Shown one piece after another: positions 16,323-49,865 of a DNA stretch of 64,000 bases. The stretch's first letter is position 1; the number at the start of each line of letters is the position of its first letter. The notes under the pieces were generated by a model. It worked only from the letters and a program-made list of their open reading frames with translations. It did not search any database and was not told the DNA's origin. Origin of the DNA: Escherichia coli (GTDB lineage Bacteria > Pseudomonadota > Gammaproteobacteria > Enterobacterales > Enterobacteriaceae); NCBI RefSeq assembly GCF_003018115.1, contig NZ_CP027457.1. One strand, given 5' to 3'. The translations under genes were made by a program, and so were the position numbers.

Positions 16323-16549
16323 GTAAACCTCTTCCTTCAGGCTTTAAATGAGCAATAACCTTAATGAATGTGACGATACATTCTGGAATGGCAGTATTCT
16401 CGGCTATTGGCTGAAGTATACCCATACCCGGAAAGAGTTACTCCTTATTTGCCGTGTGGTTAGTCGCTTTACATCGGTAAGGGTAGGGATTCTACAGCGC
16501 CGTGAAAAATCTCATAATTTTTATGAAATCACTGTACTCACTATGGGTA

Positions 16550-16563
16550 ATGATAAATATCAA
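16550..16563 (+). promoter_or_regulatory. FNR-box-like site in narK promoter (aTGATaaatATCAA)
   Basis: near-consensus TTGAT-N4-ATCAA dyad about 100 bp upstream of narK. Confidence 0.5.
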
Positions 16564-16660
16564 TGATAGATAAAGTTATCTTATCGTTTGATTTACATCA
16601 AATTGCCTTTAGCTACAGACACTAAGGTGGCAGACATCGAAACGAGTATCAGAGGTGTCT

Positions 16661-18052
16661 ATGAGTCACTCATCCGCCCCCGAAAGGGCTACTGGAGCTG
16701 TCATTACAGATTGGCGACCGGAAGATCCTGCGTTCTGGCAACAACGCGGTCAACGTATTGCCAGCCGCAACCTGTGGATTTCCGTTCCCTGTCTGCTGCT
16801 GGCGTTTTGCGTATGGATGTTGTTCAGTGCTGTTGCGGTGAACTTACCGAAAGTCGGTTTTAATTTTACGACCGATCAGCTATTTATGTTGACTGCGCTG
16901 CCTTCGGTTTCTGGCGCGTTATTACGTGTTCCATACTCCTTTATGGTTCCTATCTTCGGTGGTCGTCGCTGGACGGCGTTCAGCACCGGTATTCTGATTA
17001 TTCCTTGTGTCTGGCTGGGTTTTGCCGTGCAGGATACCTCCACGCCTTATAGCGTCTTCATCATCATCTCTCTGCTGTGCGGCTTTGCTGGCGCGAACTT
17101 CGCTTCCAGTATGGCAAACATCAGCTTCTTCTTTCCGAAACAGAAGCAGGGGGGCGCGCTGGGTCTGAATGGTGGTCTGGGCAATATGGGCGTCAGCGTC
17201 ATGCAGTTGGTTGCTCCGCTGGTGGTATCACTGTCGATTTTCGCAGTATTTGGTAGCCAGGGCGTCAAACAGCCGGATGGGACTGAGCTGTATCTGGCGA
17301 ATGCGTCCTGGATATGGGTGCCGTTCCTTGCCATCTTCACCATTGCGGCGTGGTTTGGCATGAACGATCTTGCTACCTCGAAAGCCTCCATCAAGGAGCA
17401 GTTGCCGGTACTCAAACGGGGTCATCTGTGGATTATGAGCCTGCTGTATCTGGCAACCTTCGGCTCCTTTATCGGCTTCTCCGCGGGCTTTGCGATGCTG
17501 TCAAAAACGCAGTTCCCGGATGTTCAGATTCTGCAATACGCTTTCTTCGGGCCGTTTATTGGTGCGCTGGCGCGTTCTGCAGGTGGTGCATTATCTGACC
17601 GTCTGGGCGGAACTCGTGTCACGCTGGTGAACTTTATTCTGATGGCGATTTTCAGCGGCCTGCTGTTCCTGACCTTACCGACTGACGGGCAGGGCGGAAG
17701 CTTCATGGCGTTCTTCGCGGTCTTCCTGGCGCTGTTCCTGACAGCTGGGCTGGGTAGTGGTTCCACTTTCCAGATGATTTCAGTGATCTTCCGTAAACTG
17801 ACAATGGATCGCGTGAAAGCAGAAGGGGGTTCTGACGAACGTGCGATGCGTGAAGCGGCAACCGACACGGCGGCGGCGCTGGGTTTCATCTCTGCGATTG
17901 GCGCGATTGGGGGCTTCTTTATCCCGAAAGCGTTTGGTAGCTCGCTGGCATTAACGGGTTCGCCAGTCGGCGCAATGAAAGTATTTTTAATTTTCTATAT
18001 CGCCTGCGTAGTGATTACCTGGGCGGTATATGGTCGGCATTCTAAAAAATAA
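16661..18052 (+). CDS. narK: nitrate/nitrite transporter (MFS)
   Basis: ORF 16655..18052; NarK sequence starts at second Met (MSHSSAPERATGAVITDW...), 463 aa. Confidence 0.93.
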   Translation: MSHSSAPERATGAVITDWRPEDPAFWQQRGQRIASRNLWISVPCLLLAFCVWMLFSAVAVNLPKVGFNFTTDQLFMLTALPSVSGALLRVPYSFMVPIFGGRRWTAFSTGILIIPCVWLGFAVQDTSTPYSVFIIISLLCGFAGANFASSMANISFFFPKQKQGGALGLNGGLGNMGVSVMQLVAPLVVSLSIFAVFGSQGVKQPDGTELYLANASWIWVPFLAIFTIAAWFGMNDLATSKASIKEQLPVLKRGHLWIMSLLYLATFGSFIGFSAGFAMLSKTQFPDVQILQYAFFGPFIGALARSAGGALSDRLGGTRVTLVNFILMAIFSGLLFLTLPTDGQGGSFMAFFAVFLALFLTAGLGSGSTFQMISVIFRKLTMDRVKAEGGSDERAMREAATDTAAALGFISAIGAIGGFFIPKAFGSSLALTGSPVGAMKVFLIFYIACVVITWAVYGRHSKK

Positions 18053-18189
18053 ATCTTAATATTTGATTATCCTTTGCGCGGCATGATGTCGCGCTTTTTT
18101 TATGCGTCATTTAGTTACAACATACTAATGTTATATGGTTTATTTCGCCGGATTTCATTAAGAGCCATTAATATGTTACCCATGGGGAA

Positions 18190-18206
18190 TACTCCTTAAT
18201 ACCCAT
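18190..18206 (+). promoter_or_regulatory. NarL heptamer pair (TACTCCT / TACCCAT) upstream of narG
   Basis: two TACYYMT heptamers about 200 bp upstream of the FNR box. Confidence 0.55.
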
Positions 18207-18339
18207 TTGCATAAAAATCTTAATAGTTTAAATAACTACAGGTATAAAACGTCTTAATTTACAGCATGTTATGCTGTAACTGTTAATTATCCTAAAGGGG
18301 TATCTTAGGAATTTACTTTATTTTTCATCCCCATCACTC

Positions 18340-18353
18340 TTGATCGTTATCAA
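18340..18353 (+). promoter_or_regulatory. FNR box (TTGATcgttATCAA) of narG promoter
   Basis: perfect TTGAT-N4-ATCAA dyad about 90 bp upstream of narG start. Confidence 0.8.
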
Positions 18354-18444
18354 TTCCCACGCTGTTTCAGAGCGTTACCTTGCCCTTAAACATTAGCAAT
18401 GTCGATTTATCAGAGGGCCGACAGGCTCCCACAGGAGAAAACCG

Positions 18445-21400
18445 ATGAGTAAATTCCTGGACCGGTTTCGCTACTTCAAACAGAAGGGTGAAACCTTTGC
18501 CGATGGGCATGGCCAGCTTCTCAATACCAACCGTGACTGGGAGGATGGATATCGCCAGCGTTGGCAGCATGACAAAATCGTCCGCTCTACCCACGGGGTA
18601 AACTGCACCGGCTCCTGCAGCTGGAAAATCTACGTCAAAAACGGTCTGGTCACTTGGGAAACCCAGCAGACTGACTATCCGCGTACCCGTCCGGATCTGC
18701 CAAACCATGAACCTCGCGGCTGCCCGCGCGGTGCCAGCTACTCCTGGTATCTTTACAGTGCCAACCGCCTGAAATACCCGATGATGCGCAAACGCCTGAT
18801 GAAAATGTGGCGTGAAGCGAAGGCGCTGCATAGCGATCCGGTTGAGGCATGGGCTTCTATCATTGAAGACGCCGATAAAGCGAAAAGCTTTAAGCAGGCG
18901 CGTGGACGCGGTGGTTTTGTTCGTTCTTCCTGGCAGGAGGTGAACGAACTGATCGCCGCATCTAACGTTTACACCATCAAAAACTACGGCCCGGACCGTG
19001 TTGCTGGTTTCTCGCCAATTCCGGCAATGTCGATGGTTTCTTACGCATCGGGTGCACGCTATCTCTCGCTGATTGGCGGTACTTGCTTAAGCTTCTACGA
19101 CTGGTACTGCGACCTGCCTCCTGCGTCGCCGCAAACCTGGGGCGAGCAAACTGACGTACCGGAATCTGCTGACTGGTACAACTCCAGCTACATCATCGCC
19201 TGGGGTTCAAACGTGCCGCAGACGCGTACCCCAGATGCTCACTTCTTTACTGAAGTGCGTTACAAAGGCACCAAAACTGTTGCCGTCACACCAGACTACG
19301 CTGAAATCGCCAAACTGTGCGATCTGTGGCTGGCACCGAAACAGGGCACCGATGCGGCAATGGCGCTGGCGATGGGCCACGTAATGCTGCGTGAATTCCA
19401 TCTCGACAACCCAAGCCAGTATTTCACCGACTATGTGCGTCGCTACACCGACATGCCGATGCTGGTGATGCTGGAAGAACGCGACGGTTACTACGCTGCA
19501 GGTCGTATGCTGCGCGCTGCTGATCTGGTTGATGCGCTGGGCCAGGAAAACAATCCGGAATGGAAAACTGTCGCCTTTAATACCAATGGCGAAATGGTTG
19601 CGCCGAACGGTTCTATTGGCTTCCGCTGGGGCGAGAAGGGCAAATGGAATCTTGAGCAGCGCGACGGCAAAACTGGCGAAGAAACCGAGCTGCAACTGAG
19701 CCTGCTGGGTAGCCAGGATGAGATCGCTGAGGTAGGCTTCCCGTACTTTGGTGGCGACGGCACGGAACACTTCAACAAAGTGGAACTGGAAAACGTGCTG
19801 CTGCACAAACTGCCGGTGAAACGCCTGCAACTGGCTGATGGCAGCACCGCCCTGGTGACCACCGTTTATGATCTGACGCTGGCAAACTACGGTCTGGAAC
19901 GTGGCCTGAACGACGTTAACTGTGCAACCAGCTATGACGATGTGAAAGCTTATACCCCGGCCTGGGCCGAGCAGATTACCGGCGTTTCTCGCAGCCAGAT
20001 TATTCGCATCGCCCGTGAATTTGCCGATAACGCTGATAAAACGCACGGTCGTTCGATGATTATCGTCGGTGCGGGGCTGAACCACTGGTATCACCTCGAT
20101 ATGAACTATCGTGGTCTGATCAACATGCTGATTTTCTGCGGCTGTGTCGGTCAGAGCGGGGGCGGCTGGGCGCACTATGTAGGTCAGGAAAAACTGCGTC
20201 CGCAAACCGGCTGGCAGCCGCTGGCGTTTGCCCTTGACTGGCAGCGTCCGGCGCGTCACATGAACAGCACTTCTTATTTCTATAACCACTCCAGCCAGTG
20301 GCGTTATGAAACCGTCACGGCGGAAGAGTTGCTGTCACCGATGGCGGATAAATCCCGTTATACCGGACACCTGATCGACTTTAACGTCCGTGCGGAACGC
20401 ATGGGCTGGCTGCCGTCTGCACCGCAGTTAGGCACTAACCCGCTGACTATCGCTGGCGAAGCGGAAAAAGCCGGGATGAATCCGGTGGACTATACGGTGA
20501 AATCCCTGAAAGAGGGTTCCATCCGTTTTGCGGCAGAACAACCAGAAAACGGTAAAAACCACCCGCGCAACCTGTTCATCTGGCGTTCTAACCTGCTCGG
20601 TTCTTCCGGTAAAGGTCATGAGTTTATGCTCAAGTACCTGCTGGGGACGGAGCACGGTATCCAGGGTAAAGATCTGGGGCAGCAGGGCGGCGTGAAGCCG
20701 GAAGAAGTGGACTGGCAGGACAATGGTCTGGAAGGCAAGCTGGATCTGGTGGTTACGCTGGACTTCCGTCTGTCGAGCACCTGCCTCTATTCCGACATCA
20801 TTTTGCCGACGGCGACCTGGTACGAAAAAGACGACATGAATACTTCGGATATGCATCCGTTTATTCACCCGCTGTCTGCGGCGGTCGATCCGGCCTGGGA
20901 AGCGAAAAGCGACTGGGAAATCTACAAAGCCATCGCGAAGAAATTCTCCGAAGTGTGCGTCGGCCATCTGGGTAAAGAAACCGATATCGTCACGCTGCCT
21001 ATCCAGCACGACTCTGCCGCTGAACTGGCGCAGCCGCTGGATGTGAAAGACTGGAAAAAAGGCGAATGCGACCTGATCCCAGGCAAAACTGCACCGCACA
21101 TTATGGTCGTAGAGCGCGATTATCCGGCAACTTACGAACGCTTTACTTCTATCGGCCCGCTGATGGAGAAAATCGGTAACGGCGGTAAAGGGATTGCCTG
21201 GAACACCCAGAGCGAGATGGATCTGCTGCGTAAGCTCAACTACACCAAAGCGGAAGGTCCGGCGAAAGGCCAGCCGATGCTGAACACCGCAATTGATGCG
21301 GCAGAGATGATCCTGACACTGGCACCGGAAACCAACGGTCAGGTAGCCGTGAAAGCCTGGGCTGCCCTGAGCGAATTTACCGGTCGTGACCATACGCATC

Positions 21401-25290: not shown

Positions 25291-25468
25291 TGGTGGTGAG
25301 GGAAGGATTACTCAGCGCTGCGCGCTTCGCCCTTCGGGTCGTTGCCAGCGGCAACGCTCTCTCGCTGGCGCTCAAGTCGAACCTTGGTCGAAGCTTCTCA
25401 TCCTTCCCCGCTTGGGCAGAATATTTAATTACGGATTCGTTGGGAAGTTCAGGGACTTTTGAAAGTGA
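25291..25468 (-). repeat. 178-bp tyrT-operon distal repeat unit
   Basis: begins exactly 178 bp downstream of the tyrV 3' end with a degenerate copy of the tRNA 3' 19 nt (tggtggtgagggaaggatt). Confidence 0.55.
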
Positions 25469-25553
<85 letters not shown>

Positions 25554-25587
25554 AGGGGTAATTCAAATTTTGAGGTAATGCTTGAGG

Positions 25588-25672
<85 letters not shown>

Positions 25673-25831: not shown

Positions 25832-26674
25832 TTAAAGAATAATCGTCCGATTACCGTAAACAAAGACGCGCTGCGCCAGTACTTTGTAAAGCGCACGACT
25901 TAAGACGTTTTTCTCGACGTCACGACCTGCGCGCATCATATCTTCAGCTGTGTAGGTATGATCGACATGAATAACGTCCTGCATGATGATTGGGCCTTCG
26001 TCCAGATTGTCATTCACATAGTGAGCGGTTGCGCCAATAATCTTCACGCCACGTTCATAGGCCTGGTGATAAGGACGTGCGCCGATAAACGCTGGCAGGA
26101 AGGAATGGTGAATATTGATGATCTTATTCGGGAAGCGTGACACAAATTCCGGTGTTAATACCCGCATATACTTCGCCAGCACCACGTAGTCAGGTTGATA
26201 AGCATCAATGGCATCCGCCATCTTTTGATCGTGCTCGTTGCGGCTTAACCCTTCATGGCTTACCAGCTCAAACGGTATATCAAAACGCTCAACCAGAGAA
26301 CGTAAAGTATCGTGGTTACCAATCACTGCCGCGATTTCGACATCCAGGCCGCCGTAATTGGCTTTCATCAACAAATCGCCAAGGCAATGCGCTTCTTTAG
26401 TGACCAGAATCACTATCCGGCGACGACCGGCAGGATTCAGCTCACGCACGGAGCCTTCTGGCAATGCGCTATCGAGATCCGCCAGCAGGGTGGAATCATT
26501 AAAAATCCCTTCCAGTTCCGTGCGCATAAAAAAGCGCCCGGTACGGTGATCAACAAATTCATTGTTCTGTACGATATTTAACTCGTGCTTGTAGCAAATA
26601 TTGGTAATACGTGCGATCAGACCTTTTTGGTCCGGACAAATAGTACGCAGAACTTTACGTTGGAGTGAATGCAT
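25832..26674 (-). CDS. purU: formyltetrahydrofolate deformylase
   Basis: 280-aa ORF with N-terminal ACT domain and formyltransferase core. Confidence 0.94.
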   Translation of the reverse strand: MHSLQRKVLRTICPDQKGLIARITNICYKHELNIVQNNEFVDHRTGRFFMRTELEGIFNDSTLLADLDSALPEGSVRELNPAGRRRIVILVTKEAHCLGDLLMKANYGGLDVEIAAVIGNHDTLRSLVERFDIPFELVSHEGLSRNEHDQKMADAIDAYQPDYVVLAKYMRVLTPEFVSRFPNKIINIHHSFLPAFIGARPYHQAYERGVKIIGATAHYVNDNLDEGPIIMQDVIHVDHTYTAEDMMRAGRDVEKNVLSRALYKVLAQRVFVYGNRTIIL

Positions 26675-35170: not shown

Positions 35171-35646
35171 AATGCTCTCCTGATAATGTTAAACTTTTTT
35201 AGTAAATCATCTGCTCGAATACGAGAGTATAGTCAGTGCGGTGATGATTTGCTTAACCGATGAAAATCAAAAGCTTACTCGCGCTCACACTCACTGTGAT
35301 TTACTAAAAGAGTTTAAACATTAGAGTTATTATCTCTAATGCGTCACTTCCAGGTGGCGTAAGCAAGATTACTCACTTCTGGGTACTGATTACGTGATCC
35401 AAATCAAATTTTTGCAAAGCTGACACCTTTCAGCATCGCTTTTCGCCATTATAGCTAACAGTTAATAAATTGTAGTATGATTTGATGGCTACATTAGCAT
35501 GTTTTGTACAACTAGATAACAATAACGAATGATAGCAATTTTAAGTAGTTAGGAGGTGAAAAATGCTGTCAAAAGGCGTATTGTCAGCGCGTCTTTTCAA
35601 CCTTATTTATGGCTAACATTATCCGGCTTTTGCTTCGGAGCTAACC

Positions 35647-49509: not shown

Positions 49510-49865
49510 GCACTCTCCTTGAGTTTTATGCAGGTGTTAATTAGCGGGCAATTGTACCCTGGTTAAGCCTCGGGTGGCAGCATCAGGTCTTGTATGGAAA
49601 AGCATATCTTTGTAAAGCGGAGGTAATTGCTGGCCTTCAGGCGTGGGCAAACCGCGGCAAGTGGCGATCGAGTTAATATTTGCGTAGCGAAAATATTTAA
49701 AAATTGATTTAAATCACGTTAACCAGGATTCTCAATGCAACTTCTAAATTAATCCAGATCAATAAAGGGTGAATTATCATATGTAATGTGATCTATGTAG
49801 GATCATTTGTTACTCCAATGTAGGTATATTCGTCACGTTTTTATAACCATAACGACGGAGCGGAT

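Follow-up and report, generated by a model that had tools for sequence, protein, structure and literature searches.

The narK-narG intergenic region of an Escherichia coli genome carries the known FNR and NarL sites of the narGHJI control region

The DNA analysed here is a 64,000-nucleotide stretch from Escherichia coli, referred to below as the window, and the region between its narK and narG genes is almost certainly the control region of narGHJI (nitrate reductase A): a class II FNR promoter, co-activated by distant phospho-NarL and IHF. By direct reading, the intergenic DNA occupies positions 18053-18444, between narK (16661-18052) and the narG ATG at 18445. The gene order is narL-narX / narK-narGHJI, with narX and narL divergent upstream and narH, narJ and narI following narG. 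The motifs, their geometry, enrichment and conservation, and the intactness of narX, narL and narK, were observed directly, and the transcription start, site occupancy and activation at this locus are carried over by analogy with K-12. An earlier note on this DNA had regarded the locus as expected biology, a view we share: this is the textbook E. coli narG promoter, with its sites at the published positions.

The promoter-proximal element is an FNR dyad, TTGATCGTTATCAA, at 18340-18353, a symmetrical site to which no strand was assigned. It matches the TTGAT-N4-ATCAA consensus at 10 of 10 positions in a pattern search, and its position in the earlier note proved exact to the base, both by direct reading and by that search. 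Relative to an inferred +1 at 18388 the dyad is centred at -41.5, as is appropriate to a class II activator site. Three perfect TTGAT-N4-ATCAA dyads occur in the 64-kb window, against 0.13 expected from shuffled sequence, and none of 100 shuffles gave three. For scoring we used a position weight matrix (PWM) trained on 56 K-12 sites, taken from the 63 ChIP-seq-bound sites in Table S6 of Myers et al. 2013 (PMC3688515); narG, narK and other sites homologous to the window were left out of the training set. With this leave-out matrix the narG dyad scored 14.7 bits (training minimum 11.8, median 15.1). A PWM scan was the check that the earlier note had proposed, with scores below threshold as grounds for doubt; at 14.7 bits for narG and 20.3 bits for the narK site, neither FNR site fell below it.

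Random sequence would yield about 0.5 scores of at least 14.7 bits per 64 kb and about 0.003 per 392-bp intergenic region. What makes the narG dyad convincing is therefore not its score but its location, in a 392-bp intergenic region and at the exact offset. Motif quality alone is no proof of occupancy, because scores of this level are to be expected by chance at that rate and because a third perfect dyad in the window, TTGATAAGCATCAA, at 26195-26208 inside the purU coding sequence, is predicted but unbound by ChIP-seq in K-12 (PMC3688515 Table S6). This purU dyad, an example of a silent consensus site, was ruled out as a part of nar control, being intragenic and not ChIP-bound in K-12. At K-12 narG, the identical 14-mer is bound in ChIP-seq, with a PatSer score of 14.78 and an ln p of -13.34, which passes that study's threshold of -10.75 (PMC3688515 Table S6). 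K-12 narG is also listed with a ratio of 0.02 in the transcriptome table of that FNR study (PMC3688515), where an fnr-dependent expression change is reported.

Elsewhere in the window, one-mismatch FNR sites at 35394-35407, 49704-49717 and 49749-49762 are the counterparts of ChIP-bound K-12 sites at adhE/ychE and, for the last two, ompW. Among the best FNR PWM hits in the window, five of seven are identical to ChIP-bound K-12 sites; the remaining two are the second narK site, described below, and the unbound purU dyad.

The transcription start was placed by adding 41.5 to the centre of the FNR dyad, which gives A18388, a position transferred from K-12. The core promoter (18376-18388, plus strand) then consists of this inferred start and a weak -10 hexamer, TACCTT, at 18376-18381, which agrees with the consensus at 3 of 6 positions. 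A promoter scan found no sigma-70 promoter matching at least 9 of 12 positions at narG, as expected because a class II promoter is activator-dependent. The block GCGTTACCTT at the -10 region is nonetheless conserved across genera. With +1 at 18388, the site centres are -208, -195, -185, -89 and -41.5, and all four NarL sites fall together on their K-12 labels, which by analogy would give strong indirect support to 18388 as the start. Three of the K-12 labels (-41.5, -89 and -195) come from papers; the -185 and -208 labels we take to be those in use for the K-12 narG heptamers. The "expected distances" from narG that had been asserted for the FNR and NarL sites are borne out, in that -41.5 for FNR and -195 for NarL are the offsets published for K-12 (PMC3688515 Table 1; PMC4549865).

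Three NarL heptamers lie far upstream on the plus strand: TACCCAT at 18177-18183 (centre -208), TACTCCT at 18190-18196 (centre -195) and TACCCAT at 18200-18206 (centre -185). The last two had been reported as TACTCCT/TACCCAT within 18190-18206, and the pattern search recovered both exactly; the -208 heptamer is absent from the earlier note. Closer to the promoter is the -89 NarL region, TTATCCT-AA-AGGGGTA, at 18287-18302 (no strand assigned). Its right arm, AGGGGTA, is a perfect heptamer, reading TACCCCT on the minus strand at 18296-18302 and centred at -89. Its left arm at -98, TTATCCT, is degenerate, with 5 of 7 consensus positions and 4 of 7 shared with the right arm. A 7-2-7 site in the sense of two consensus heptamers, inverted and separated by a 2-bp spacer, is therefore not present at narG by this definition, and the heptamers at -208, -195 and -185 are direct repeats. 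K-12 narG is likewise described as being without 7-2-7 sites, and footprints of NarL-P there cover the -89 (high-affinity) and -195 regions (PMC4549865).

Between the two groups of NarL sites, the best candidate for an IHF site is an IHF-like core, TTACAGCATGTTA, at 18259-18271 on the plus strand, with its centre at about -123 and three mismatches to WATCAANNNNTTR. A consensus search for WATCAANNNNTTR at up to two mismatches gave no match where the site would be expected in E. coli, and this poor E. coli match was found through cross-species alignment only. The E. coli columns align with WATCARNNNNTTR of other genera, which is perfect in 21 of 104 regions; a 21-taxon alignment shows no variation at C18262, A18263 or T18270, and at least 90% of the taxa retain A18271. 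We take the published IHF position at narG to be about -125. That IHF is required at narG has been reported (PMC3688515, PMC4549865). Every motif named in the earlier note was thus correct, but its list lacks three elements on which the known narG mechanism depends: the -208 heptamer, the NarL site of high affinity at -89 and the IHF-like core near -123.

A perfect 9-bp inverted repeat, TTACAGCAT-GTT-ATGCTGTAA, at 18259-18279, overlaps the IHF-like core and was flagged by a terminator scan. It is completed by a lineage SNP, G18276, where K-12 has T. We rejected it as a feature, because K-12 has an imperfect version and other Escherichia do not conserve it either, so that the repeat is probably fortuitous.

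Relatives of the locus were collected by searching a species-representative genome collection with a degenerate pattern for the NarG N-terminus, which returned 120 loci. Of these, 104 were narG-type (MSKFL...) with at least 400 bp upstream and 8 were narZ-type (MSKLL...); the 104 narG upstream regions come from species of Enterobacteriaceae and Hafnia. An FNR dyad of the form TTGATC-NNN-RTCAA is present in 104 of 104 narG regions, 93.5-114.5 nt before the ATG, with variation confined to the spacer. In 77 of 104 species a TACYYMT heptamer stands upstream of the dyad at a distance of exactly 153.5 bp from its centre, corresponding to -195; 88 of 104 have one no more than 4 bp from that position. 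The -185 heptamer keeps the strict consensus in 10 of 104 species, although its first four bases, TACC, are nearly invariant and belong to the conserved block TACYCCTTAATACC; the -208 heptamer keeps it in 2 of 104 regions, one in the window and one in another E. coli genome. As the strict consensus at -185 and -208 is essentially confined to Escherichia, the contribution of these two sites rests on K-12 genetics.

The GGTA core of the -89 heptamer is invariant in the 21-taxon alignment. Column conservation and that alignment together delimit five conserved islands, namely TACYCCTTAATACC (-198 to -185), a CA-N6-TA core at about -123, the GGTA core at -89, the dyad and the GCGTTACCTT block of the -10 region, whereas columns between the islands reach a consensus of merely 30-50%. 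Judged from the alignments, this footprint bears the mark of selection on precisely the elements established in K-12. The 153.5-bp spacing between FNR dyad and -195 heptamer is fixed across Enterobacteriaceae, and it therefore supports, rather than reveals, a looped FNR-IHF-NarL architecture.

By the mechanism known for K-12, a [4Fe-4S] FNR dimer would bind TTGAT-N4-ATCAA at -41.5 when oxygen is absent and recruit RNA polymerase to the weak core promoter (TACCTT). Nitrate would cause NarX to phosphorylate NarL, and NarL-P would then fill the high-affinity -89 site together with the lower-affinity direct heptamers at -208, -195 and -185. IHF would bend the DNA near -123, so that the distal NarL complex would be brought up to the promoter-proximal one. 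Just upstream, narK would be served by an FNR and NarL promoter of its own. Uninterrupted open reading frames were found for narL (216 aa), narX (598 aa) and narK (463 aa), and narX and narL are so annotated in a record 99.95% identical to the window. The earlier description of the locus as regulatorily intact holds for the cis elements and for full-length narX, narL and narK, but is slightly over-broad in that neither fnr nor the IHF genes fall within the window.

Between narK and narG, the sequence shows 100% identity to E. coli strain F9792, 99.7% to an O157:H7 strain and, across 387 alignable bases, 98.5% to K-12. On these identities and the genome matches, sequence comparison assigns the window to E. 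coli, O157:H7/O55:H7 lineage. The narG control region was matched in 5415 of 5426 complete E. coli genomes, leaving 11 without a match, and a 71-bp stretch containing the FNR dyad and core promoter was likewise present in 5415 of 5426. Of 5417 E. coli records, 4219 have this 71-bp stretch exactly as it is in the window. A 51-bp block spanning -208 to -185 is window-identical in 430 records, which carry the lineage allele, and the rest differ by 1-2 bases.

Some records depart from this picture or add to it. Thirteen matches to the narG control region are on records classed as plasmids. In E. coli FDAARGOS_943 (segment 3248-3249, corresponding to about 18300 in the window), an IS1A copy lies inside the -89 NarL heptamer, AGGGG|GGTGATGCTGCC..., and cuts the FNR core promoter off from the NarL and IHF module upstream of it. 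In the F9792 record, otherwise 99.95% identical, narK (record positions 3611-5000) is annotated as a frameshifted pseudogene, whereas narK of the window is intact at 463 aa; the alignment between the two contains two gaps, so the frameshift could be either an artefact of assembly or a true lesion of F9792.

Several explanations compete with an FNR-, NarL- and IHF-regulated promoter. The motifs could be without regulatory role, AT-rich intergenic DNA having matched short, degenerate consensus sequences by chance; we give this negligible credence. Single TACYYMT heptamers are indeed near chance in the window (41 against 32 expected), a PWM score at the level of narG turns up about 0.5 times per 64 kb, and a perfect dyad, that of purU, goes unbound in K-12. 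Against this, five site centres coincide with K-12 labels, three of them from papers and two taken to be in use, and three TACYYMT heptamers within 30 bp, as in the narG cluster starting at 18177, 18190 and 18200, arose in 1 of 300 simulations. The dyad is retained in 104 of 104 regions and the -195 heptamer at its exact offset in 77 of 104, while the flanks have diverged, and the identical 14-mer is ChIP-seq bound in K-12. The cross-species footprint and the identity to a ChIP-bound site effectively refute chance, which we regard as excluded. It is also very improbable that paralogous regulators are the main binders, with CRP taking the place of FNR or NarP that of NarL. CRP and FNR are homologous proteins with related 22-bp dyads, NarP recognises the same heptamer, and an engineered construct combining a narG upstream segment with a CRP core promoter is functional (PMC9314961). 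The half-sites, however, are TTGAT/ATCAA, of the FNR type, and not TGTGA/TCACA, of the CRP type, and both FNR ChIP-seq binding and an fnr-dependent expression change are reported for K-12 narG. As for NarP, the -208, -195 and -185 heptamers are direct repeats, and the -89 region, with 5 of 7 positions in its left arm, makes a poor 7-2-7 pair. NarP reportedly needs 7-2-7 inverted pairs, according to work by Darwin et al. in 1997 that PMC9314961 cites.

The remaining alternative accepts the promoter and concerns its strength. Three SNPs distinguish the window from K-12 within 18180-18360, at 18207 (-181), 18276 (-112) and 18338 (-50), none of them in a motif, and they might quantitatively alter narG regulation in the O157/O55 lineage relative to K-12. 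We consider this quite unlikely. T18207 does abut the -185 heptamer, in the 51-bp stretch that is identical in 430 records only and looks lineage-restricted; G18276 is near the IHF-like core and completes the inverted repeat at 18259-18279; and T18338 is 2 bp from the FNR dyad. Yet no SNP falls inside a recognised motif, these columns are poorly conserved between genera, and the 71-bp stretch that includes the -50 base is window-identical in 4219 of 5417 records, so that K-12 apparently carries the minority type there. The reading that we retain is the standard narGHJI promoter, activated by FNR and co-activated by phospho-NarL and IHF.

The one mildly unexpected finding falls beyond the coordinates given in the earlier note. 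Just downstream of the control region, the 57-nt narG leader (18388-18444) shows cross-genus conservation above that of most of the promoter and contains a box, GCAATGTCGATTT, that is near-invariant across genera. A hairpin at 18415-18428, with a 5-bp stem of the form GRGCC-loop-GGCTC, stands directly before the Shine-Dalgarno sequence; its loop varies in sequence and in length (3-6 nt), and the stem is kept. One position of the stem is a G-U pair in E. coli versus A-U in other genera, and Hafnia has a complementary stem of its own, GGGGMT...ATCCCC. The covariation is thin, amounting to 2 pairs with compensatory changes, all from Hafnia, and the predicted RNA fold of the whole leader is of unremarkable stability (z = -1.1). 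The Rfam gathering scan gave no match in the narK-narG intergenic region, and a literature search found no description of the leader element. From conservation and folding, the box and hairpin might be an undescribed post-transcriptional element, acting in mRNA stability, translation, or protein or sRNA binding, but we think this unlikely.

Upstream, narK has two candidate FNR sites, neither assigned a strand. Site 1, TTGATTTACATCAA, at 16588-16601, is a perfect dyad scoring 20.3 bits; this is the second FNR-like dyad before narK that the earlier note had mentioned, and it is a perfect match. Site 2, ATGATAAATATCAA, at 16550-16563, has one mismatch, scores 13.6 bits and is centred 38 bp upstream of site 1, a position that we take to be about -79.5. 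In K-12, narK site 1 is ChIP-seq bound, with its centre at -41.5 (PMC3688515).

At the other end of narK, the terminator scan identified an intrinsic terminator on the plus strand at 18076-18100, consisting of an 8-bp stem (18076-18094) followed by T7, which sets the upstream bound of the narG control region. In Salmonella, RNase E releases NarS, an Hfq-dependent sRNA, from the narK 3' UTR (PMC7038943). The segment at about 18036-18100 of the window, comprising the narK 3' end and this terminator, appears from its sequence to be the counterpart of the Salmonella NarS source, and the terminator would form the 3' end of a NarS homologue.

Rfam matches in other parts of the window include two rdlD-type antitoxin RNAs of ldr/rdl modules (8560-8625 and 9095-9160) and an RtT RNA with two tRNAs between narI and purU (25291-25672). 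Matches to isrK, C4 antisense RNA and sok are clustered at 60495-61562, and this cluster at 60.5-61.6 kb points to DNA of prophage origin close to where the window ends.

The control region holds nothing new: it is among the best-characterised of E. coli promoters and is already known. Its significance here is that a strain of the O157/O55 lineage carries the standard anaerobic and nitrate switch, with the known cis elements and narXL undisrupted. Respiratory nitrate reductase has a bearing on growth in the inflamed gut, and beyond annotation the result matters little.

Compared with the narGHJI promoter of K-12, the locus is orthologous and has the same gene order; the FNR 14-mer, the four NarL heptamers, the spacing, the -10 hexamer and the 57-nt leader are all identical. 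The two differ, apart from the SNPs considered above, by an insertion in the narK 3' UTR. K-12 has a 123-bp imperfect palindrome right after the narK stop codon (1876-1998 of the compared K-12 segment), which the window lacks at 18053-18058 and which we take to be an ERIC/IRU-like element. Many E. coli probably carry this element too, because about half of the E. coli records among the 30 matches listed align from query base 6, as K-12 does.

The narK promoter of the window resembles that of narG in belonging to the same regulon and in having a class II perfect dyad and TACYYMT heptamers (at 16419, 16439 and 16543). It differs in having two FNR sites versus one, a shorter control region and another arrangement of heptamers. 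The narZYWV promoter belongs to a homologous operon, that of the paralogous nitrate reductase Z, whose product has a nearly identical N-terminus (MSKLL versus MSKFL). Unlike narG, however, it is without an FNR dyad: in the narZ regions, searched from 40 to 220 nt upstream of the ATG, none was found and the best score was at most 4.4 bits. This fits the known FNR independence of narZ, which is independent of FNR activation (PMC8139620).

The narG promoters of other Enterobacteriaceae, including Salmonella, Citrobacter, Klebsiella and Enterobacter, share with the window the FNR dyad, the heptamer 153.5 bp upstream of it, the GGTA core at -89, the CA-N6-TA columns of the IHF-like core, the GTTACCTT block at -10 and the leader. 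Most other genera have a near-palindromic 7-2-7 arrangement, TACCNCT-TT-GGTGGTA, at -98/-89 and a better IHF consensus, whereas E. coli has a degenerate -98 left arm and extra heptamers at -208 and -185.
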